Source: an uncultured delta proteobacterium (GTDB lineage: Bacteria; Desulfobacterota; Desulfobacteria; Desulfobacterales; B30-G6). Taken from it: a stretch of 64,000 nucleotides of DNA. The stretch is taken from positions 704,001-768,000 of the forward strand of contig CAWGLD010000001.1 of assembly GCA_963823335.1 (NCBI GenBank), given 5' to 3'. How positions within the stretch are numbered: position 1 is the stretch's first letter; each line of letters begins with the position of its first letter. Below are positions 1,930 through 58,275 of this stretch, piece after piece. Under the pieces are notes generated by a model. It was not told the DNA's origin. It was given only the letters and a program-made list of their open reading frames with translations, and did not search any database. The translations under genes were made by a program, and so were the position numbers.

Positions 1930-1957
1930 TCTTCTCCTCCGGATTTATGGTATAACA

Positions 1958-2050
1958 AGGGTCCAAGTGTTTGTTTTCCAGCTTTTCTGCATAACGTTTA
2001 CCCTTTTATAACTTAAGTGTTTCACTCGAACCCTGGGACCCTGGAATCCT
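1958..2050 (-). pseudogene. Collapsed four-helix-bundle cassette remnant (ATG CAG AAA joined out of frame to codons for LENKHLDP) with 8-mer repeat arms
   Basis: CAAGTGTTTGTTTTC matches the 3' end of the four-helix-bundle fragment at 57981 (LENKHLNP), and the CCCTGGAATCC-type arm matches 58211-58245. Confidence 0.6.
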
Positions 2051-6451: not shown

Positions 6452-6675
6452 ATGTCATTAGCACTTCGCGCGGCATTATGCCCTGCGGGCGTCATTTACA
6501 CTGCGTGTGTTATTAACGCTGCGCGTGTCATTCATTGTTGCTATCAGCTATCAATTACCCTCCAACCCTTCAAGCCTCGGACCCTCAAACCTAACACCTG
6601 AAACAGTTAATGCTGCTGTCCGCTTAACTGTCAGCCACCCTCGAACCCCTGTATCACCCTCGAACCCTCGGATCC
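6452..6675. repeat. Composite intergenic repeat block (hairpin-studded GTCATT array plus CCCTCGAA 8-mer array)
   Basis: GTCATT units separated by mini-hairpins at 6452-6540; CCCTCGAA/CCCTCCAA units at 6556-6675. Confidence 0.75.
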
Positions 6676-10392: not shown

Positions 10393-10451
10393 CGCCCTCA
10401 AACCCTCCAAACCTCAGACCCTCCTACCCTGCTTTTTTTACCCCTGGACCC
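10393..10451. repeat. CCCTCAAA-type 8-mer array (G-rich on the sense strand) after the fabG stop
   Basis: CCCTCAAACCCTCCAAACCTCAGACCCTCCTACCC. Confidence 0.65.
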
Positions 10452-10455
10452 ATCT

Positions 10456-14902: not shown

Positions 14903-14950
14903 GTTCGGGTTTGTTGAGTTCATTGAGTTTATTGTGTTTCTTGTGTTTGC
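14903..14950. repeat. GT-rich 9-mer array after the gltX stop
   Basis: GTTGAGTTCATTGAGTTTATTGTGTTTCTTGTGTTT; same family as 21838 and 23590. Confidence 0.65.
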
Positions 14951-15241: not shown

Positions 15242-15467
15242 GCTAACCTAAAATCATTTTTATAATTATCATCCACGGCCTGTCACACCGGAAGCCGCAA
15301 GCGCCAGTCTCATCGCTCTTGTTATTATTACATCAGGGACTTAGATGCTATTCTGAGTCTCTGGTTCTTTTTTTCTTTTCAGACTCTGCCCTCCGTTTTC
15401 CGTCCACTGACCTTCTGATCTTCTTAACTTCTGCGCTTAGGCCTCTGTATAAGTGATTGCTAAATTA

Positions 15468-15634
15468 TTGAACCGCAACAGCGAGCGCATTCCCCGTAGC
15501 CTGCTGCGGGGTTAGCGAGCGAATCTAAATTAGACAGAACTCCTTACGGTCGATGCGCAGCGCTGCCGTACGGCAGAACATTCCTCGTAGGTTCTGCCGT
15601 TCGGCAGTGCTTCGCATGCTGCGAGGTTCTTCAA
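15468..15634. mobile_element. MITE/REP-like element, copy 1 (TTGAA...TTCAA ends)
   Basis: Near-identical reverse complement at 46086-46228; internal hairpins of the CCCCGCAGCAAGCTACGGGG type and CTGCCGTACGGCAG. Confidence 0.8.
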
Positions 15635-21771: not shown

Positions 21772-21877
21772 AGGGTTCGAGGGTGATACAAGGGTGATAA
21801 GAGGGTTGGAGGGTGGCTGACAGCCGTGAGCGAAAGCAACCCAACGAACCCAATAAACGCAACAAACACAACAAACT
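21772..21877. repeat. G-rich 8-mer arm followed by a C/A-rich 9-mer arm
   Basis: AGGGTTCGAGGGTGATACAAGGG... then AACCCAACGAACCCAATAAACGCAACAAACACAACAAAC. Confidence 0.7.
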
Positions 21878-21890
21878 ATAGGCTATCCGT

Positions 21891-23584: not shown

Positions 23585-23672
23585 TGTTCTATGTTCATTG
23601 AGTTTCTTGGGTTTTTTGAGTTGTATCTGGTTGTGAGCGTATAGCAAAAGAAATACAAACCCAATGAACTCA
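23585..23672. repeat. Inverted 9-mer arrays between convergent genes
   Basis: GTTCATTGAGTTTCTTGGG...ACCCAATGAACTCAA. Confidence 0.6.
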
Positions 23673-25513: not shown

Positions 25514-26089
25514 ATGATGGATCATTATTTCATGAAATACGGCCAGATACTTATGGGTACCCTATTCTGTCTTCTTGTTCAACAGAATATCCATGCTCAA
25601 ACCCTCTATACATGGAAAGACGCCACGGGCACGATCCATATTTCCAAACACAAACCCCCGGCAGACCAGCCCTTGACAGACCAGCGGCACTATACGACCA
25701 GACTTGCTTCCAAACCGGAAATCAAAACGTCGGCGCCTGCCGAGACAGGCGCTGACACTGTTCTAACAGCAGCCAGACAGGCAAAGCTGGCCAGAGAACA
25801 GGCAGAGAGAGCCAGACGCATTGCTGAAGAGGCCATTCAAGAGGCCACTCAGGTAAGAACGGAAACCGACGCCTTTCTTGAACCCTGGCGAAACAAAACA
25901 CGGATTAGAAAAAACATGCAGCTACAGATCGAAAGCCGCATTCAAAAAGCCAACCAGTCCATTGCCAAAGCAGGCTATCTCATTGATGCCGCCAACGAGG
26001 CCGAACAAATAGCGCAAGCCGCCGAAAATGAAGCCCGAAAAACCCAGGATCATTTTTTTAAAGCCTACAGAGACATCATTACAAATTAG
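25514..26089 (+). CDS. Exported DUF4124-like protein with a coiled-coil C-terminus
   Basis: Signal-like N-terminus, LYTWKDATGTIHISKHKPP, Ala/Glu-rich helices. Confidence 0.7.
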   Translation: MMDHYFMKYGQILMGTLFCLLVQQNIHAQTLYTWKDATGTIHISKHKPPADQPLTDQRHYTTRLASKPEIKTSAPAETGADTVLTAARQAKLAREQAERARRIAEEAIQEATQVRTETDAFLEPWRNKTRIRKNMQLQIESRIQKANQSIAKAGYLIDAANEAEQIAQAAENEARKTQDHFFKAYRDIITN

Positions 26090-26231
26090 TGTCCGTCCAG
26101 AAATGAGGATTTTTGCGTGAGATCAAGGCGGACGACAGATTTAAGCCGGAGTAATCGCGTTCAATTTTGAGGAGTTAAATCATGGCGTCCAACGCCGATA
26201 TCGCGGAAAAAAACCATGTGTGGATGGGCAC
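26089..26231. mobile_element. MITE-like element with imperfect terminal inverted repeats
   Basis: GTGTCCGTCCA...TGGATGGGCAC ends; internal TCAAGGCG...CAACGC core shared with 62209-62333. Confidence 0.6.
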
Positions 26232-26251: not shown

Positions 26252-27988
26252 ATGCAAAAGCACATTTTACCGAAAAACCAGGAAAAAGATACCTCTGTCA
26301 TGGAAAAACCCGAAGCACCACCACCCAACTTCATCCGTAATATCATCGAAGATGATTTCAAAACCAATAAATTCGGCCAGAGAGTAGCGACTCGCTTCCC
26401 ACCAGAACCCAACGGCTATCTGCATATCGGCCATGCCAAGTCCATCTGTCTGAACTTCGGCCTGGCCACCGAAAATAACGGCACATGCAATTTACGATTT
26501 GATGACACCAATCCATCCAAGGAGAACGTCGAATATGTCGACGCCATCCAACAGGATGTGCGCTGGCTTGGCTTCGATTGGGGGAAAAGACGCTTTTTTG
26601 CCTCGGACTATTTCGAACAGCTGTATGCCTATGCCTGCCAGCTCATCCAAAAAGGGAAGGCCTATGTGGACAGCCTGAGTGCCGACGAGACAAAGACCTA
26701 TCGCGGCACACTGACCGAAGTGGGTCAGGAAAGCCCTTATCGCACGCGATCCATCCAAGAAAATCTCGATCTGTTTCAGAGAATGCGCAACGGCGAGTTC
26801 GAAGACGGCGCACATGTTCTGCGCGCTAAAATCGACATGACCCATCCAAATCTCCTGATGCGGGATCCCACACTATATCGAATAAGAAAGATATCTCACC
26901 ACAGGACCGGGGATGCGTGGTGCATATACCCCATGTACGATTTTACCCACTGTCTTTCAGACTCTCTTGAAGGAATCACACATTCCATATGTACCCTCGA
27001 GTTCGAGAACAACCGCCAGTTGTACGATTGGATTCTGGATGCGCTCGAGGTCTATCACCCGCAGCAGATTGAATTCGCACGCCTGAATCTAAGCTATACT
27101 GTCTTGAGTAAGCGACGGCTGATCCAGCTCGTGGAAGAAAAGCATGTCTCAGGATGGGATGATCCGAGACTGTTGACCATTTCCGGTTTGAAAAGACGGG
27201 GGTACACACCCGAAGCCATTCGGAATTTCTGTGAACGCATCGGTGTCGCCCGAAGAGACAGTATGGTGGATATGGCCCTTTTGGAGTACACCATCCGGGA
27301 AGACCTCAATAAGAGAGCCCCACGGGTGATGGGTGTTCTCAATCCTTTGCGGGTGATCATCGACAACTACCCGGAAGGACAGGTGGAAGAAGTCGAGGCG
27401 GAAAACAACCCGGAGGACGCCGGCATGGGTTCGCGTAAGCTGCCCTTCTCCCGGGAGCTGTTCATCGAAAAAGAAGATTTCATGGAAGAGCCACCCAAAA
27501 AATTCTTTCGTTTGGCACCGGGTCGTGAAGTCCGGCTCAAGCATGCCTATTACATTACCTGCCATCATGTGGAAAAGGATACGGCCACCGGAGAAATCCA
27601 GACACTCCACTGTTCCTACGATCCGGCAACACGCGGCGGCTGGTCCGACGACGGCCGAAGGGTCAAGGGAACGCTTCACTGGGTATCTGCTCCGCATGCT
27701 CTGAAAGCAGAGGTCAGACTTTACGAACACCTCTTCAGCAAAGAAAATCCCAATGACCTCAAAGAGGGGCAGAACTTCAAAAATATTTTGAACCCGAAGT
27801 CACTGACGGTGTTGAGCGAGTGCTATGTGGAACCGGGCCTGGCGGCGGCGAAACCCGGGTCCCATTATCAATTTCTGCGGCAGGGATATTTTTGTGTCGA
27901 TACGGTGGACACCACGGAAACCCACCCTGTTTTCAATCGCATTGTAACATTGCGGGATACCTGGGCGAAGATACAGAAGAAGGGTTAA
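26252..27988 (+). CDS. glnS: Glutamine--tRNA ligase (start at 26252 or 26300)
   Basis: [46 protein letters not shown] and GWDDPR. Confidence 0.97.
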
Positions 27989-28225
27989 AGGGGTGCAGGG
28001 TTAAGGGTTTTAAGGGTAAGCTCACTGACTAACGCTGATAGCGGCCTTGTAGTTTTACACCTCCCAGGCATACTCGACGCTTTCAGCTGATGGCGCCCCC
28101 CCTCTCACACCCTCAAAACCTTGTATGCTGGGAAACGTGGATGCTTGGAGGCGGGGATGCCGCTGTCTGCTCACAGCTGTCGGCCACCCTCCAACCCTTG
28201 CATCCCCCTCGAACCCTAGACCCTT
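27982..28225. repeat. GGG-rich 8-mer arrays after the stops of convergent glnS and amrB
   Basis: GGGTTAAAGGGGTGCAGGGTTAAGGGTTTTAAGGG on +; CCCTCCAACCCTTGCATCCCCCTCGAACCCTAGACCC before the amrB stop. Confidence 0.7.
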
Positions 28226-28228
28226 CTA

Positions 28229-30407: not shown

Positions 30408-30546
30408 AAGGGTACAAGGGTCCGAGGGTAATCAAGGGTTCAAGGGAAGGTCTCCCTATGGTCGATCTATTATGATATGTCACTCAGAAAATAGCTGTTA
30501 GCTCATAGCGTAACCTAAAACCTAAAACGTAACACCTAAAACCAGA
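30408..30546. repeat. Repeat arms between sucD and hypA
   Basis: Sense strand: GT-rich TTTAGGT 7-mers after the sucD stop, then C-rich CCCTTGAA 8-mers towards hypA. Confidence 0.65.
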
Positions 30547-37840: not shown

Positions 37841-37919
37841 ATCACGAAAACACGAAACCTTGAAAACACGAAAAATTTATAGTCTTTTTCGTGTTTTCGT
37901 CCTTTCGTGTTTTCGTGAT
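37841..37919. repeat. ATCACGAAAACACGAAA...TTTCGTGTTTTCGTGAT hairpin repeat (family A)
   Basis: Perfect 17-bp outer inverted repeat plus a second inner pair. Confidence 0.85.
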
Positions 37920-40138: not shown

Positions 40139-40216
40139 TATTGAAAAGGCGTAAAACCGCAAGCCGCTCAAAGCTTACAGCCCACCCTCCAAACCTGCTC
40201 TACCACCCCTCCAACC

Positions 40217-40621: not shown

Positions 40622-40706
40622 TACGCATGCTCCTATCTTCTATTATCTATCATACATTCTTTGTTCGATGCCCTTATTGTCTCCATCAATCTTTTATGAA
40701 AATTTT

Positions 40707-40840
40707 GTCATTTGCTCCTGTGGAGCGATATTAGCTCCTGGCGGAGCGTCATTAGACTTCGTCGTCATTCATTCCTTCGGAATGTCATTAGCTTCTTCGA
40801 AGCGATATTTCGCTGCGCTGTAATTTGCTCCTTCGGAGCG
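40707..40840. repeat. Hairpin-studded repeat arm downstream of the four-helix-bundle pseudogene
   Basis: GTCATT/GATATT/GTAATT units alternating with GCTCC-N3-GGAGC-type mini-hairpins. Confidence 0.8.
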
Positions 40841-41215
40841 TTATTTATTGTTTTTTGACAACCGATTGATTGAGCTAATGTAATTATTCAGTTTTACACC
40901 AAGCATGTCTATATCTCTCAACAGACTTTGGAAATCGGTGTCGTTGATTAATTTTCGTTTGTTACCCTTTTGTCAACCAGGTTCTTGGTCTCGAACAAAG
41001 ATCCTCTGGCAAAGTAGCTGAATTGTCTTGTTTCCTTGAAATGAAATCTGCCGAATCCTTCACTGATATTGGCTGCAATACGGAATCAGCAGCTCTTATT
41101 AACTGCTTGCCGATCGTACGCTTTTGAAAAATAATCCCATTCTTCAACAAGCCCCCATATATTTTCGCCCAATTTCCATGGACAGTTGATATATTTCCAG
41201 ATCCTCAAGTTTCAA
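40841..41215 (-). pseudogene. Four-helix-bundle (23S IVP / Avd-like) gene with 5 frameshifts
   Basis: Removing 6 extra nt gives MKLEDLEIYQLSMEIGENIWGLVEEWDYFQKRTIGKQLIRAADSIAANISEGFGRFHFKETRQFSYFARGSLFETKTWLTK..., collinear with 52919-53284. Confidence 0.85.
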
Positions 41216-41242
41216 AAAATCTCCCGTTACCGATTTAACCCA

Positions 41243-41412
41243 CAATGAATGATCGACGAAGTCAAATATCGCTCCGCAGGAGCTAATTACTATCAATTAC
41301 AGCGAAGTTAAATATCGCTCCGCAGGAGCTAATTACCACAAATTACAGCGAAGCTAAATGACACGCCGTTAGGCGTTAATGTCGCTCCGAAGGAGCTAAT
41401 GACAATGAATGA
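41243..41412. repeat. Hairpin-studded repeat arm upstream of the pseudogene, inverted relative to 40707-40840
   Basis: AAATATCGCTCCGCAGGAGCTAATTAC occurs exactly at 41264 and 41310; CTAATGAC units. Confidence 0.8.
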
Positions 41413-43329: not shown

Positions 43330-43401
43330 ATCACGAAAACACGAAATCTCGAAATAGATCAAAAATATTTTCGTGCTTTCTAAATTTCGTGTTTTCGTGA
43401 T
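43330..43401. repeat. Family A hairpin repeat
   Basis: ATCACGAAAACACGAAAT...ATTTCGTGTTTTCGTGAT. Confidence 0.85.
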
Positions 43402-44643: not shown

Positions 44644-44838
44644 GAACCGCAGAATGTCGAACAAGGAATATCGAATTTCGAAGTGTTTTCTATTACTTCT
44701 GCAGTTCAAAATTTCTTGTTCGATATTCGATATTTCCTTTAAATTGATAAGATCATTAACGTTAATGCAATTGGGCAAAAGCCAGATCTAAGGGCTTACC
44801 CCTCGAACCCTTGTATCACCCTTCAACCCTCAAACCCT
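44644..44838. repeat. GAATATCGAA-family repeat (inverted copy of 3976-4123) followed by a CCCTCGAA array
   Basis: See 3976-4123; CCCCTCGAACCCTTGTATCACCCTTCAACCCTCAAACCC at 44799-44837. Confidence 0.8.
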
Positions 44839-44840
44839 TT

Positions 44841-45896: not shown

Positions 45897-45974
45897 GGGT
45901 CGTTTATCGTGTTTAGTGTTTCGTGTTTGGTCCGCTGTATGTCAAGCCTGGTTGTTTTCTGATAATAGTAACTC

Positions 45975-46085: not shown

Positions 46086-46228
46086 TTGAAGAACCTCGCA
46101 GCAAGCTACGAGGAATGTTCTGCCGTACGGCAGTGCTGCGCATCGACCGTAAGGAATTCTGTCTAATTTAGATTCGCTCGCTAACCCCGCAGCAAGCTAC
46201 GGGGAATGCGCTCGCTGTTGCGGTTCAA
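46086..46228. mobile_element. MITE/REP-like element, copy 2
   Basis: Reverse complement of 15468-15634, 24 nt shorter. Confidence 0.8.
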
Positions 46229-46230
46229 TG

Positions 46231-51048: not shown

Positions 51049-52857
51049 GTGAAAAAACAGATTCTGATTTCAATCGTGTTCATGGGTCTTCTGACAATGG
51101 GTTCGGCCCTGGTTGCCACGGGCCCTGCATCGGCAGAGACCCGGTCCGGCATCCTCATTATTCCGTTCAACATTCATGCCCAAGAAGTGCAGTCCTTTCT
51201 CATACCGGCCATCACGGACATGCTCTACACGCGCCTGTCCGCTGAAAACCGGACCGTATCCGTGGAAAAGATGCCTGCGGGGACGGAACCGGTCTCGGTC
51301 GAGGACGCCATCGCCATGGGGCAGCAGCAAAACGTGGATTATGTGCTCTTCGGCAGCGTCACCATGCTGGGGTCCATGATCAGCACGGATGCGCAACTTG
51401 TCGGTGTTGCCCAGGAAAAGCCCCTGCTGACATTCAACGAGGTGGGGCAGGACCAGGGTGACATCATTGCCCACATGGAACATTTGACAACCCGCATCAA
51501 TGAAACCGTTTTTGGTGTGGCCAAAGGCGTGGTATTATCACCCGCATCCGATCCGGCTGCAGACGATATTCACACCCACCCGGAAAAACTGGTGATACCC
51601 GGCATAACGCCTGAGACACCACCGGCTCTTGCACCATCGACTGCCCCTGCAAAATCGACTGCACCCACAACATCGACCGCACCAGCAACGATGACCGCTC
51701 CAACAGCATCAGCTGCGCCCACAACAACGGCTCCCGCTGCTCCCATCGTGCTTGTGGCACCCCAAACAGACGAGGATGAAAGTTCCCTGTCATACTGGAA
51801 AAGCGAAAGTTTTCCGGCGACTATCGAGGGCCTCTCCATCGCAGATGTCGACGGGGATGGTTCCAACGAGGTCGTTTTTGTCAGCTACGACCAGATCTTT
51901 ATCTACAGGTATCAGAACGAAAGCCTTAATGAAATCAAGATCTTAAGTAATAAATCCTTTCACCGTCTCATGTTTGTGGACACGGCCGACATCAACCAGA
52001 ACGGCACGCCTGAAATTTTTGTGACGGATTATATCTCCAGCAATCAGCGCCTGAAATCCATCGTACTGGAGTGGAATGGCAGGGATTTTGCTGTCCTCGA
52101 TGAACTCACTAACTGGTATCTGCGCGTCCTTAAGACACCCGCATCCGGGACTCTTTTGCTGGGCCAGAAGCGCGGCACGGGTTCAAGTTCTACCTTTACT
52201 AACCGCCCTCAGGAAGCATTGTTTGATCTGGATATCCATGAAATGAAATGGCAGGACGGGCGATATGAAGCCGCAGGCAAATTTGCTGGGCCAAAAGAGA
52301 TGACGCTGTTTGACTTTACCCAGGGCGATGCGTCCAACAATGGTCAAACCGAAACCGTGGCTTTTTTAAGAAACGACTTTTTCAGAATATATGACCAGGC
52401 CGGGGAATCCACCTGGGAGAGCGGTCAAATCTATGGTGGAAGTCGTCTCTTTTTCGAAGCACCGAATATGGATCGCACCGGCTCCGTCGCTCAGGGCGTC
52501 TCCCGCTCCGCCAAGAGTGTCAAATACTACCTTCCCCAGCGGATCCACGTAAGCGATATCGACGGGGACGGTTTGAACGAAATTATCGTCGTTAAAAACT
52601 ATGATGGCGAGGGGGGTATTTTTTCACGTATGAAGGCGTTCAAGGAGGGACGTATCGACTGCTTTTCCTATGACGATGTCGGCGTCCAACGCAAGTGGCA
52701 GACACGTAACATCGCCGGGTATATCAGTGATTATGTCATCGGCGACCTGGACAACGACGGCATAAACGAAATCGTACTTTCCACGGTGGCAAAAAATAAG
52801 TCGGTCTTTAATAAGGGTAAGAGTTATATAATGTCCTGTAAAGCGGTTAAGGAATGA
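51049..52857 (+). CDS. Exported FG-GAP/VCBS-repeat protein with a Pro/Ala/Thr linker
   Basis: Signal peptide; DVDGDGSNE, DINQNGTPE, DIDGDGLNE and DLDNDGINE loops. Confidence 0.85.
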   Translation: MKKQILISIVFMGLLTMGSALVATGPASAETRSGILIIPFNIHAQEVQSFLIPAITDMLYTRLSAENRTVSVEKMPAGTEPVSVEDAIAMGQQQNVDYVLFGSVTMLGSMISTDAQLVGVAQEKPLLTFNEVGQDQGDIIAHMEHLTTRINETVFGVAKGVVLSPASDPAADDIHTHPEKLVIPGITPETPPALAPSTAPAKSTAPTTSTAPATMTAPTASAAPTTTAPAAPIVLVAPQTDEDESSLSYWKSESFPATIEGLSIADVDGDGSNEVVFVSYDQIFIYRYQNESLNEIKILSNKSFHRLMFVDTADINQNGTPEIFVTDYISSNQRLKSIVLEWNGRDFAVLDELTNWYLRVLKTPASGTLLLGQKRGTGSSSTFTNRPQEALFDLDIHEMKWQDGRYEAAGKFAGPKEMTLFDFTQGDASNNGQTETVAFLRNDFFRIYDQAGESTWESGQIYGGSRLFFEAPNMDRTGSVAQGVSRSAKSVKYYLPQRIHVSDIDGDGLNEIIVVKNYDGEGGIFSRMKAFKEGRIDCFSYDDVGVQRKWQTRNIAGYISDYVIGDLDNDGINEIVLSTVAKNKSVFNKGKSYIMSCKAVKE

Positions 52858-52910
52858 TTTTGGTGGTTGGTGTTTAGTATTTAGTGGTTAGGTGGGTTTG
52901 TTTGTGTGGG
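52858..52910. repeat. GT-rich 5' arm of the four-helix-bundle cassette
   Basis: GGTGTTTAGTATTTAGTG is complementary to CACTAAATACAAAACACC at about 53307-53324 (1 mismatch). Confidence 0.75.
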
Positions 52911-52918
52911 GAATATAG

Positions 52919-53284
52919 ATGGCATTCATTTGCTTTGAAGATCTTCGGGTTTTCCAACTGGCTGAAAAGCTTTGTGACGATATATGGGAAATCGTTCGAG
53001 AATGGAATTATTTTGAAAAGAACACTGTCGGCAGACAACCTGTGAAGGCGGCAGACAGTATCGGAGCCAATATCGCTGAAGGCCCTGGAAGGGGATACCC
53101 TAACGATAATAAACGGTTTATTAAAATTGCTCGCGGTTCCTTGAATGAGACAAAGTTCTGGCTTCGCAGAGCATCCAAAAGAGGTTTATTGGACGAAACC
53201 CAAAGTGATTGCCTGGCAAAAACCCTTGATGAATTAGCACCGACATTGAACGCATTTTTAAGTTCTATCGGTCGGAACGCCTGA
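52919..53284 (+). CDS. Four-helix-bundle protein (23S rRNA IVP / Avd-like)
   Basis: FEDLRVFQLA, Q..KAADSIGANIAEG.GR and IARGSLNETKFWL. Confidence 0.9.
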   Translation: MAFICFEDLRVFQLAEKLCDDIWEIVREWNYFEKNTVGRQPVKAADSIGANIAEGPGRGYPNDNKRFIKIARGSLNETKFWLRRASKRGLLDETQSDCLAKTLDELAPTLNAFLSSIGRNA

Positions 53285-53291
53285 AAACGCT

Positions 53292-53358
53292 TTAACCAGC
53301 TACAAAACACTAAATACAAAACACCAAACACATATATTATTTTTTGTGTTTTCGTGAT
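53292..53358. repeat. CA-rich 3' arm of the cassette plus a family A half-site
   Basis: CAAAACACTAAATACAAAACACCAAACAC; TTTGTGTTTTCGTGAT. Confidence 0.75.
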
Positions 53359-53373
53359 GAAAGATCTTTTCTT

Positions 53374-55224
53374 TTACACTATTCTCTTAAAGGCTTTTTC
53401 AAAAAACACCTTATCCAATTTGATCCAGGTAGGTCTTCCGTGGGGACAGTTGGAAGGGTTTTCGCAGGCATCCAGCTGTTCCAGCATGACCTTGATTTCC
53501 GTATCCGTCAGACGCTGATTGGCTCGGATAGCGCCATGGCAGGCCATGAGTTTGATGCCGTCGTCGATCGCTTTTTCAGCGGTGTCTGCAGAGCCGTCTT
53601 CGATCCACGTCTCCACCATCTCCACCACCAGGGTCTTGACTTCGTGATCTCCCAGAACAGCCGGCACGGACTTGATGGCAAAGGTGTCGCCCCCGAAGGG
53701 CTCGATCTCGAAACCCAGGGTTGCAAGTTCGGGGAGAAATTTTGACAGAACGTTTGCCTCCCGGTAGTTGAGATCGACAATTTCGGGTATCAGCAACCCT
53801 TGTGACTCGGTTTTCACCTTTCGGGATTGTTTCAACTTTTCGTAGAGAATCCGTTCATGCGCGGCATGCTGGTCGAGCAGAATGAGGTCCTGGTTGGACT
53901 CACACACAATGTAGATATCCTGATATTGACCGATGACCTTCAAGTCACTGAACCGTGTCTGGTCCCAGAGGTGTGTCTGGGCCGGCAACTGCTTTGAGAA
54001 CCCGTTACCGCCGGCAGGCTTTATGGCGGTAGTGTGTGGTCCCCGCCTATCTGAAAGTGTTCGTATGGGCGCTGAACTTGATGGAAACAACGCTGTTTTC
54101 ACCGACGGCGCCAAGGTCTCTGTTGCTTCGTGCTGCAAAGAAGCGGCCCAGGCGCTTTTCCCATGATATTCCCTTGGCTTTTCCTTGATGAAGAGCATCT
54201 TTTCCTGGGGAAATCGCCGGCCCCATCTTTGGGCGTCGACCTGCTGCAATGCCTGGGCGACGGCAGACCGGACTGTGTCGTGAACCTGTTTCTGGTCACT
54301 GAATCTCACTTCATTTTTTGCCGGATGAACATTGACGTCCACTTTGTCGAACGGCACCCGGATAAACAGCACCGCCAGGGGAAACTGGCCCTTGACAAGC
54401 CGGCCGGTATACCCCTCAAACAGCGCATGCTGGACCACGCGGTCCCTGGCAGCCCTGCCATTGACATAGATGTGCATACTGCGGGATGTTTTGCGTGTGA
54501 TGGACGGAGAAGAAAGCCACCCTTCCAGCTGCAGATACCCGTCGTCATGCTGAACGGCGATGAGCCCCTCTTTCAGCTCCGCCCCCAGCACATGAATCAC
54601 CCGATCCGCTGGATTGGGTACAGCCACCCAGTTTTTCAGCAATTTATTGTTGTGAACCAGTTTGAATTGAACCTCGGGTCTCCCCAGGGCCATGGCAGCA
54701 ACCACGTCGGCGATGTGACCCATTTCGGTCTGGATACCTTTTAAGAACTTTCTTCTGGCAGGCGTGTTGAAAAAAAGCTGCCCCACGCTTACCTGGGTAC
54801 CCACCGGCGCACCGACTTCCGTCACCTTTTGAATTTTGCCGCCCGCCATAAGAAGTTCGAGGCCGGTGTCTGCGTCTCTATGCCGGGTAACCAGAGAAAA
54901 TCGGGAAACGGAAGCAATACTGGGCAGGGCTTCCCCCCTGAAGCCCAGGGTCCGGATGGAAAACAGATCTTCGTTTTTATAAATCTTGCTGGTGGCATAG
55001 CGCTCAATCGAGAGCAGGGCGTCGTCCGGGGGCATGCCCGTCCCGTTGTCCGACACCCGGATCAGGGAGCGCCCCCCTTTTTCGATCTCCACAAGAATCT
55101 GACTGCTCTCCGCATCCAGGGAGTTCTCCAGAAGTTCCTTGACCACGGAGGCGGGTCGTTCCACCACCTCACCGGCGGCAATCTTGTTGGATAATATTTC
55201 GGGTAGAATTCTTATGGCAGACAT
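53374..55224 (-). CDS. mutL: DNA mismatch repair endonuclease MutL
   Basis: IAAGEVVERPASVVKEL, GFRGEALPSI, DVNVHPAK, DQHAAHER and CPHGRP. Confidence 0.98.
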   Translation of the reverse strand: MSAIRILPEILSNKIAAGEVVERPASVVKELLENSLDAESSQILVEIEKGGRSLIRVSDNGTGMPPDDALLSIERYATSKIYKNEDLFSIRTLGFRGEALPSIASVSRFSLVTRHRDADTGLELLMAGGKIQKVTEVGAPVGTQVSVGQLFFNTPARRKFLKGIQTEMGHIADVVAAMALGRPEVQFKLVHNNKLLKNWVAVPNPADRVIHVLGAELKEGLIAVQHDDGYLQLEGWLSSPSITRKTSRSMHIYVNGRAARDRVVQHALFEGYTGRLVKGQFPLAVLFIRVPFDKVDVNVHPAKNEVRFSDQKQVHDTVRSAVAQALQQVDAQRWGRRFPQEKMLFIKEKPREYHGKSAWAASLQHEATETLAPSVKTALFPSSSAPIRTLSDRRGPHTTAIKPAGGNGFSKQLPAQTHLWDQTRFSDLKVIGQYQDIYIVCESNQDLILLDQHAAHERILYEKLKQSRKVKTESQGLLIPEIVDLNYREANVLSKFLPELATLGFEIEPFGGDTFAIKSVPAVLGDHEVKTLVVEMVETWIEDGSADTAEKAIDDGIKLMACHGAIRANQRLTDTEIKVMLEQLDACENPSNCPHGRPTWIKLDKVFFEKAFKRIV

Positions 55225-55428
55225 TGGGTGTTTTGTGTTTCGTGTTTGTATTTGTGTTTCGTGTTTGGTGTTTCGTGTTTCGTGATTGGTGTTTTGTTTC
55301 GTGTTTCGTGATTGGATAATGGAGATTCAGGTGTTAGGGGCAATACCATTATAATTAACCTGAACACAAATAGCCAACGCCATCATGCCCTACCCAACAA
55401 AACACAAAATACCAAACACAAAACACTA
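55225..55428. repeat. Empty cassette: inverted GTGTTTC 7-mer arrays between the small gene stop and the mutL start
   Basis: About 12 imperfect GTGTTT(C/T/G) units at 55227-55311; complementary CAAAACAC units at 55396-55428. Confidence 0.85.
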
Positions 55429-55608: not shown

Positions 55609-55663
55609 GGGGGTACCTCATTTGTTTTGCAATATGATATGAATGTATTCTTTTGTATCGTGA

Positions 55664-55730
55664 TGAAATTCGAAGCACGAATATCGAAATCCTAAACAAA
55701 TTCAAATATCAAATGAACCAATGTCCAAAA
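55664..55730. repeat. GAAATTCGAA..ATATCGAAATCC repeat arm; shorter copy at 31457-31495
   Basis: GAAATTCGAAGCACGAATATCGAAATCCTAAACAAAT versus GAAATTCGAAATCCAAATATCGAAATCCAAAACAAAT. Confidence 0.7.
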
Positions 55731-55742
55731 CCGTAGACAATT

Positions 55743-55765
55743 GTAGTTCAGGGCTTCAGCCCTGC
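55743..55765 (+). repeat. GTAG-type REP downstream of the RAYT gene
   Basis: GTAG-TT-CAGGGCT-TC-AGCCCTG-C. Confidence 0.88.
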
Positions 55766-55773
55766 ATAAACAA

Positions 55774-56352
55774 TTATGCCAACTTTCCATCCAGCTCAAA
55801 AGATCCTGACAATTGATAATCCAGATAGTGCATCACAATCTTTTTCCTGACTGGATTGTTGAAAATGTATTTCACCGTTTCCAACAAATCTTCATCTTTT
55901 CGCAATACATGGTCATAAAAGCTTGGTTGCCAGAGTTTTGCTTTATCTGCAGGGCTGAAGCCCTGCACTACATCACCCGGATCACCCTTTTTCTCGTAGC
56001 CCAGGGCTTCAGCCCTGCTATCCAGATGCGTGACTTTTACCTTGTTAGAACGGCTATAATGATAGCCGGCACTTTGTTTGAAAGATGATACGAATTTCTT
56101 TAAGTCGGCATCCTGCTCCATCCCTTCTGCAAGAAAGTGAACATGATCCGGCATAAAACAGTACGCCCAAACCTTAAAATGAAATGCTATAGCTTTTTCA
56201 GCAAGCAACTCAATGTATTGTTTAGCAATCTCTCTATTATGAAATACTGGATTCTTATTTTGGGTGCAAATGGTAATAAAATAACGGTAATGTCCTGTAT
56301 AATCAAATCCCTTTAATCTTGGTCGCCGTTTGAATTTCCTCTTGATAACCAT
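55774..56352 (-). mobile_element. REP-associated tyrosine transposase (RAYT, HUH Y1 family)
   Basis: RLKGFDY, YFITICT, MPDHVH (HUH), LWQPSFYDHVLR and KYIFNNP; adjacent GTAG REPs. Confidence 0.92.
55949..56018. repeat. Inverted REP pair inside the RAYT ORF
   Basis: GTAGTGCAGGGCTTCAGCCCTGC on - (55949-55971) and GTAGCCCAGGGCTTCAGCCCTGC on + (55996-56018). Confidence 0.9.
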
Positions 56353-57882: not shown

Positions 57883-57980
57883 ATCGTACCTGTAAATGAT
57901 CTTTGCAATTTAACTTAGAAGAAATTAAATTAGGATCTTTTCCCAACTAGTTGGGAGAAAGGGTTCAAGGGGTCCAGGAT

Positions 57981-58187
57981 TCATGGATTCAAGTGTTTGT
58001 TTTCAAGGGATTTGATCATCGCTTTTAGCATTCTCTCTACATCCCCGAGCTCCTCTCTCAATTCCTGAAGCTTTTCCTTCTTCATATAATCCAAATCACC
58101 GGATATCATCGTCTGCGTTTCCAATTCATAGACTGATCCATATGCAATATCAAGAAACCTCACATACTCTGAGGTTGTTTTTCTCCT
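57981..58187 (-). pseudogene. C-terminal half of a four-helix-bundle gene in a repeat-flanked cassette between gatC and gatA
   Basis: RKTTSEYVRFLDIAYGSVYELETQ...VERMLKAMIKSLENKHLNP*; the N-terminal half is missing; inverted 8-mer arms at 57960-57992 and 58211-58245. Confidence 0.85.
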
Positions 58188-58275
58188 AGCTGATGCCTCA
58201 CTTCATCTCGCTCGAACCCTTGACCCCTGGAATCCTGGAATCCTTAATTTGGATCAACTCTGTTGGCGATGATCC

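Follow-up and report, generated by a model that had tools for sequence, protein, structure and literature searches.

In a 64-kb window of bacterial DNA (the whole stretch analysed; G000:C1:704001-768000, from a 4.37-Mb genome), an intact four-helix-bundle gene lies between two protein-coding genes and is bracketed by mutually inverted arrays of degenerate heptamers, an architecture that recurs around related genes in several phyla. The reading that we prefer, and to which we give a little less than an even chance, is that such a cassette could be a selfish, promoterless unit resembling an intervening sequence (IVS), located at the 3' ends of genes, moving rarely by recombination between its arms and encoding a protein that acts in cis.

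The focal cassette and its protein

The focal cassette (52858-53332) occupies the junction between a gene encoding an FG-GAP-repeat protein (51049-52857, forward strand), which lies upstream and on the same strand as the cassette gene, and mutL (53374-55224, reverse strand), which is convergent on the cassette. Its left arm with a short leader (52858-52918, forward strand) consists of G/T-rich degenerate heptamers with a core at 52860-52891, the onset being 2 nt past the stop codon of the FG-GAP-repeat gene. It is followed by an intact gene encoding 121 aa (52919-53284, forward strand) and by a right arm (53285-53332, forward strand) of C/A-rich heptamers with a core at 53302-53331, which is an inverted copy of the left arm; an older element with octamer arms has left its outer end stranded at positions 53340-53373. 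As the first-pass annotation had proposed, inverted arms bracket the gene: the two cores are mutually inverted with a local score of 39, the 541-nt fold of the locus has a z of -3.1 (none of 100 shuffled sequences folded equally well), and the arm duplex reaches -38.5 as compared to a shuffled mean of -28.1 (sd 3.9; best among 300 shuffles, -39.6). The stem pairs across the gene but is interrupted. The accompanying claim that the C/A-rich arm precedes a start codon does not apply to this locus; as the FG-GAP-repeat gene and mutL are convergent, no start codon lies beyond the right arm.

The assignment of the enclosed gene to the four-helix-bundle family was borne out by scores of 93.8 bits against PF05635 (curated cut-off, 33.8) and 87.3 bits against TIGR02436 (cut-off, 24). 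The predicted structure has four long helices (pLDDT 84) and matches XCC0516 (2GSC; TM 0.84) and also BT_0352 (2RLD), while the match to the DGR protein Avd (4DWL) is weaker (TM 0.73, identity 12%); all three share the sequence family and the fold of the focal protein. Unlike the gene for DGR Avd, the focal gene has no adjacent reverse transcriptase, template repeat or variable gene; its neighbours are the FG-GAP-repeat gene and mutL, and both RVT_1 matches lie far from the window. Prediction of a four-copy complex of the focal protein scored 0.33, with a method limited to four copies, the family being characteristically homopentameric. Net charge was positive for 117 of 120 homologues and just +1 for the focal protein.

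When compared to orthologues at the same site, the focal gene showed dN/dS values of 0.15-0.19. Among same-site pairs of family genes, dN/dS was 0.05-0.26 in the 11 unsaturated pairs of 21 (10 saturated pairs and 6 tgt pairs with a frame problem were omitted), and host genes likewise ranged from 0.05 to 0.26; dS was more scattered for family genes (0.27-1.68) than for host genes of the same genome pair (0.28-0.45). These low ratios indicate that the protein is kept functional while the cassette is resident, though copies often decay, and long residence is accompanied by purifying selection. We infer that selection at each site arises because a basic, oligomeric protein would act in cis on its own hairpin nucleic acid and would thereby favour the spread of the cassette. 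A fixed and selected family gene could equally serve the host.

A scan for promoters and terminators at the focal locus returned matches at chance level only, and the cassette would be read from the host transcript. No second copy of the focal cassette was found anywhere in its own genome, and no pair of terminal inverted repeats with a target duplication was found at the locus, in which respect it is unlike miniature transposable elements (MITEs) and mobile insertion cassettes. The closest related locus among named genomes is in a Desulfobacterales MAG (focal protein 87% identical).

The suggested likeness to rRNA intervening sequences was upheld. In the available portion of its description (PMC4990558), the IVS of Coxiella burnetii carries heptameric repeats and an S23p ORF, its ends pair into a 28-bp stem, and RNase III cuts it; the focal locus also has complementary heptamer termini around an S23p ORF. 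As far as the same portion describes them, ORF-bearing 23S rRNA IVSs (Coxiella burnetii, Leptospira; S23p) resemble the cassettes in their inverted arms of variable-copy tandem heptamers, their one four-helix-bundle ORF, the lack of a transposase, their patchy distribution and the frequent decay of the ORF (PMC4990558). Unlike these IVSs, the cassettes lie between protein genes, form many lineages per genome and have more broken stems. An Rfam search of the 64-kb window found no rRNA and a single tRNA, the focal flanks are protein genes, and none of 40 related loci tested was in rRNA. The focal cassette is built like an ORF-bearing IVS and is not one by location.

Inverted arms in related genomes and in the genome of the window

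The association of inverted arms with four-helix-bundle genes, also put forward by the first-pass annotation, was found to be general. Inverted arms (score of at least 24) were present at 72 of 78 loci from close kin (cyanobacteria, Acidobacteriota, Planctomycetota, Chloroflexota, Verrucomicrobiota and others) and at 26 of 29 loci from a phylum sample (98/107 loci, after 3 of 110 at contig edges were dropped); the figure was 4 of 78 for control ORFs, and 134 of 600 for cross-locus pairings. The kin loci include 57 pairs at a shared site and are therefore not independent observations. Of the 30 family genes examined in five distant genomes (out of 43 matches), 28 had inverted arms, and one distant genome carries seven family genes with at least five different perfect units. 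The arm period was 7 at 75 of the 78 close-kin loci. Arms matched their own partner better than foreign pairs did (median 0.37 vs 0.00), and arm unit similarity tracked protein identity above about 75%. The units are specific to a lineage and change in both arms together; slippage and template switching would keep the arms complementary.

In the genome of the window, arms (periodic arrays of 7-9-nt units, with families clustered from the data) numbered 447 in intergenic DNA (48 per 100 kb) as compared to 35 in coding DNA (1 per 100 kb), and 426 arms were found in 3191 intergenic gaps as compared to 0-4 in each of 5 dinucleotide shuffles. There are about ten times as many arms as gene remnants (447 vs 42), and heptamer arrays are known as genome-wide features from what is available of PMC4692102, both of which would fit an origin of the arms as simple sequence repeats made by the host, the gene merely landing inside them. 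This origin is, however, highly improbable and largely refuted, given that different genes in one genome carry different, self-matching units, that the unit follows protein identity, and that cargo-free pairs of a non-focal family retain the leader and trailer of the full cassette. Our own gene caller missed most family genes, and its count of 5 arm-flanked genes among 3578, all of them host genes between two cassettes, is thus no test of the association between arms and family genes.

Arms had been described as polarised, with the G/T-rich arm following a stop codon and the C/A-rich arm preceding a start codon on the transcribed strand. Polarity is indeed non-random within arm families, but its sign is family-specific: 146 of 211 gene-adjacent arms obey this rule and 65 do not, four families following it at 20:0, 19:1, 21:1 and 23:2 (the last being the focal family) and two reversing it (2:20 and 2:10). 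An inverted pair reads G/T-first on both strands, and the rule is therefore uninformative on transcription for paired arms; polarity was accordingly rejected as a transcription signal for such pairs, which are strand-symmetric and keep their order upon inversion. The order of the arms is a property of the element and is better described as G before C (106 of 125 stems).

Arms were present in 219 of the 1685 co-directional gaps of at least 60 nt, in 38 of the 271 convergent ones and in 32 of the 383 divergent ones; no preference for operons was found, co-directional junctions carrying arms no more commonly than convergent ones. Cassettes are placed at stop codons. In the genome of the window, 79 of 346 arms lay within 10 nt of a stop (47.8 expected), while arms within 10 nt of starts called by our own gene caller were not enriched (54 of 331 vs 60.2 expected). 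At the kin loci, the median position of the end of the left arm was -1 nt relative to the upstream stop (no more than 10 nt away in 41 of 69). A cassette may be tolerated because it is confined to, or rewrites, the stop-codon end of the gap.

The first-pass annotation had pictured an IVS-like stem in mRNA, and one alternative, which we consider unlikely, is that such a stem serves the host or is neutral to it, either joining stop and start codons or being processed by RNase III, with the protein regulating processing or coupling. Part of that picture, the geometry of co-directional junctions, was recovered: at the kin loci, the median distance from the right arm to the next called start is 5 nt (no more than 10 nt in 31 of 65), and the cassette usually spans the whole gap from stop to start, as in a Nostoc-group example. 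Long residence under purifying selection would also be in keeping with a role in mRNA, and translational roles for such repeats are proposed in the available text of PMC4679880 and PMC2670836. Several observations speak against the explanation by an mRNA stem. Convergent junctions are as frequent and include the focal site, starts are not enriched in the genome of the window, the sense strand shows no bias towards G-U wobble (155 G-U vs 182 A-C, 4 duplicate loci having been removed), uninterrupted pairing is short (median of 13 pairs per stem; 20 such pairs in 34 of 125 stems), and loss and replacement are frequent irrespective of the host gene. Of 22 listed sequencing runs, 4 were used, all as Logan contigs; the RNA runs yielded short pieces only, partly from relatives, that are uninformative on excision; in these contigs, no joint skipping the focal cassette occurs among the joints listed, which leave out 22 others. 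An RNase III gene is present in the genome, and cutting of the transcript by RNase III is possible, as a side effect rather than as the demonstrated basis of tolerance.

Recombination between arms, as required by our preferred reading, is indicated by a Nostoc-group site in an ABC-transporter operon, where two of five genomes have the interior of the cassette in the opposite orientation between the arms, with the ORF intact (L073, L079 and L120 compared to L082 and L089). Overall, 6 same-site pairs were inverted and 57 had the same orientation, the inverted pairs all representing this one site. The arms therefore recombine, and the Nostoc-group cassette is possibly an invertible element.

Arms of the same family also cluster locally. 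Within 10 kb, clustering was observed for the focal family (13 of 28 arms vs 5.1; p 0.008) and one other family (19 of 37 vs 8.4; p 0.002), with p 0.014 overall and 9 of 11 families without significant clustering; the MITE described below showed no local clustering within 10 kb. Under the selfish-cassette reading, rare spread at the DNA level would proceed by arm recombination, into nearby arms with the same unit and, via the flanks, between related genomes. Dense one-family arm clusters surround a single intact cassette at G000:C4:60000-140000 and C6:205000-208400.

Family loci and cargo-free arms in the window and in congeners

Four family loci had been reported in the window, as stages of one decay series. 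Three were confirmed as described, i.e., the intact gene at 52919-53284, the frameshifted gene at 40841-41215 and the C-terminal half at 57981-58187, while the locus at 1958 does not retain its start. The single series itself was rejected: the loci represent three unrelated lineages with different arms (the focal cassette; 40841; and the pair 57981/1958), and 57933-58275 is a MITE. The second lineage (40700-41410, reverse strand) has inverted arms of longer period around the frameshifted gene, which gives family matches in two frames; at this site the gene is intact in G004, G007 and G009, truncated in G005 and reduced to 65 nt in G001. At 57981-58187 (reverse strand) the C-terminal 64 residues are retained. 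The remnant of the octamer-armed lineage at 1955-2050 (reverse strand), in which no terminal repeats were seen, has an internal deletion, beyond which the left arm, some 13 codons of the N-terminus in decayed form and a few final codons remain; the ATG at 1992 aligns within the old reading frame, not at its start. Elsewhere in the genome, two adjoining divergent family genes with no detected arms lie at G000:C4:64095-64838.

Eleven sites had been listed as cargo-free arms, two of which (55225 and 45900) had an inverted score of at least 24 within the gap. The other nine fell short: the pairs at 23585 and 27982 are weak (inverted scores of 21 and 19, respectively), and the remaining seven sites hold lone arms or two arms from different families. 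Specifically, the focal family is represented by a cargo-free arm pair at 55225-55425 and a lone arm immediately before the queA start (45897-45931). A lone 9-mer arm directly follows the gltX stop (14903-14948, forward strand; kept in G001, G004 and G007), and a weak 9-mer pair lies in a convergent junction with its right arm overlapping the pgi stop (23585-23672). Octamer arms are found after glnS, overlapping its stop (27982-28228; congeners have different arm families there), after the fabG stop (10395-10452, lone), abutting the stop of an epimerase gene (40185-40216, short and weak) and after the queA stop (44799-44840, lone), in a gap where four congeners hold a four-helix-bundle cassette with other arms. 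Two stacked arms of different families share one gap at 21772-21880 and again at 30408-30543, and stacked remnants after glyA (6453-6674) comprise an 18-nt-period array and octamer arms. In addition to these sites, the reverse-polarity octamer family has a cargo-free pair at 37843-37919, in which the C/A-rich arm comes first; this family also occurs near 43330, 47040 and 58595. Separate palindromic repeats of 130-145 nt (46086-46230, 15464-15597 and 26086-26231) have many congener copies with 90-99% identity and often lie within arm cassettes.

The anticipated variation of orthologous junctions was observed across five congeners in which the window is syntenic, junctions being filled, empty or replaced. 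Across the six genomes, a family gene is found at six of the 43 window junctions, in one or more genomes in each case and never in all six. At the focal junction, G007 and G002 carry an orthologue; G004 carries a cargo-free octamer pair, which is the whole of the older element whose stranded end lies at 53340-53373 of the window; and G005 carries a GxxExxY-bearing form of that octamer element. The 55225 junction holds an intact four-helix-bundle gene (72% identical) in G009 and a fragment in G008. Decay, loss and replacement of cassettes are thus frequent, and the cargo-free arms would be deletion derivatives of the cassette. The C-termini of glyA, glnS and other host genes in congeners read into the arm, which supplies the stop codon. 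The last residues and the stop of the essential genes glnS (27982), glyA (6675) and pgi (23670) vary among congeners, as the arm supplies them. No clean high-identity pair of empty and filled sites pinpoints the insertion for cassettes without terminal repeats, and no near-identical copies of such a cassette were found at two sites in one genome.

Routes of spread and relation to known repeats

The third lineage in the window (57933-58275, reverse strand) combines terminal inverted repeats with octamer arms, retains the gene's C-terminal half, and represents the capture of one cassette lineage by MITE ends. Its 8-bp duplication (7/8 alike) includes the gatC stop, and its site is empty in all five congeners; the family numbers about 50 pieces in the genome, and 14 terminal-repeat elements with an 8-bp duplication were found. 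With terminal inverted repeats, target duplication, many copies and empty sites, this element moves as an ordinary MITE, and it and its approximately 50 relatives resemble MITEs and mobile insertion cassettes also in forming a deletion series. An 8-bp AT-rich duplication is a trait of the IS1595, IS6 or ISL3 type, and the subfamily would be moved by a DDE transposase in trans. No autonomous IS with these ends was found in the genome of the window, where matching ends were not seen at the two broken IS1595-family transposase genes (G000:C5:481160-482140 and C5:496765-497900), and an ISL3 transposase was found in 1 of 10 genus genomes, not the one studied here. Of 123 metagenomic ends of this type, 22 were paired, all at 105-524 nt and without a long ORF. 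The search for a parent IS was thus negative in the genome itself, in genus genomes and among metagenomic ends. Five near-identical terminal-repeat elements carry an intact divergent four-helix-bundle gene and hexamer arms (G000:C2:12833-13524, C4:31203-31895, C4:218226-218917, C4:341847-342538 and C7:100288-100873), and four of the five contain a nested palindromic insert.

Family genes are biased towards the sense orientation relative to co-directional neighbours, at 66:8 among kin and 25:3 in the genome of the window. This bias, together with insertion at stops, could point to retro-mobility, in which RNase III would release a hairpin RNA, its own Avd-like pentamer would bind it and a reverse transcriptase acting in trans would copy it, before insertion where translation ends, as a bacterial counterpart of a non-autonomous retroelement. 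The Avd fold agrees with this, the Avd pentamer binding the DGR RNA and being required by the reverse transcriptase in the available part of 10.1101/2023.10.23.563531. Most sites lack terminal repeats or duplications, the rRNA form is excised by RNase III (PMC4990558, available portion), and the genome of the window has, besides RNase III, two reverse transcriptase genes (G000:C1:97337-97966 and C7:233479-234141). We nevertheless regard retro-mobility as doubtful. Reverse transcriptase does not track the family (16 of 37 vs 5 of 23 genomes; p 0.10) and is absent from two single-contig genomes that carry 9 and 5 family copies, and the sense strand lacks a G-U bias. Moreover, the MITE, which moves as DNA, likewise has most of its copies in the sense orientation (15:3 among co-directional sites in the genome of the window), so that the sense bias needs no RNA step and could result from selection.

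REP and REPIN sequences with their RAYT are extragenic hairpins near gene 3' ends with non-autonomous derivatives, and the cassettes are alike in these respects; unlike REP/REPIN, they have as arms tandem arrays that share no terminal motif, and they enclose a gene that does not encode an HUH enzyme. A gene for a RAYT (REP-associated tyrosine transposase; 55774-56352), with a short palindrome, lies within a repeat arm (window 55640-56352). The cassettes could be non-autonomous passengers, either of a GxxExxY nuclease-fold protein, by homing-like cutting and repair, or of a RAYT/HUH transposase in REPIN-like fashion, but this appears very unlikely. GxxExxY co-occurs with the family (17 of 37 vs 1 of 23 genomes; p 0.0005) and occupies the focal junction of G005, yet it is absent from 20 of the 37 family-carrying genomes (E 1e-8), and the co-occurrence may mirror a shared way of life. 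Similarly, the RAYT occupies a junction that holds a four-helix-bundle gene in four congeners (G001, G004, G005 and G007), and the genome has 8 Y1 transposase matches; however, arm units differ by lineage with no shared terminal motif seen among them, and the RAYT has its own adjacent palindrome. No mobility enzyme for the cassettes was found, which counts against the selfish-cassette reading that we prefer. Random polarity, invariant junctions and a lack of association with the gene had been named beforehand as outcomes speaking against a mobile IVS-like element, and none of them was observed.

Polar heptamer repeats are already known. In the text available of PMC4692102, the Xanthomonas GGGAATC repeat and related Nostoc heptamers are G-rich in the sense direction after stops and antisense before starts and form 70-75 inverted pairs; their loci are reported as stable, and that text does not mention a four-helix-bundle protein. 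TAACTGA arrays of Beggiatoaceae and cyanobacteria, as partly described in PMC4679880, end about 1 nt before starts and are suspected of a mobile origin, and cyanobacterial STRR form hairpins (PMC2670836, in part). According to these portions, such repeats resemble the cassette arms in placing the G-rich strand after stops and its complement before starts, in forming inverted pairs, in overlapping stop codons and in lying inside operons, but they are not tied to a cargo gene (PMC4692102, PMC4679880, PMC2670836). In Fischerella muscicola PCC 7414 (L271), the TAACTGA unit forms the arms of a four-helix-bundle cassette. Repeat polarity (PMC4692102, PMC4679880) and the rRNA form (PMC4990558) are thus already on record in the parts consulted, while the main texts searched, with few subscription journals and no supplements, yielded no paper that links the family with repeat arms outside rRNA, and the accessible part of 10.1101/2021.01.26.428298 holds nothing on the cassette design. 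Our analyses add evidence on selection, inversion, stop-targeting and clustering, as well as negative results for the mRNA-stem and reverse-transcriptase models.

It is tempting, although we think it improbable, to extend retro-mobility across phyla: Avd-like cassettes would be non-autonomous retroelements whose protein packages its own hairpin RNA for a borrowed reverse transcriptase and insertion at stop codons, the polar heptamer repeats of cyanobacteria, Beggiatoaceae and others would be their decay products, 23S IVSs would be copies that landed in rRNA, and DGR Avd would have been recruited from them. Independently of the route, the cassettes come and go between related bacteria, and four-helix-bundle cassettes may be the source of bacterial polar repeat sequences. 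Three loose ends meet here, namely the function of S23p/four-helix-bundle proteins, the origin of 23S rRNA IVSs and the origin of polar heptamer repeats. Culturable cyanobacteria provide ready substrates for such work, among them a naturally inverted allele. If the selfish-cassette reading is true, polar repeats would be the footprints of a mobile unit that lacks a recognisable recombinase and rewrites the termini of essential genes.
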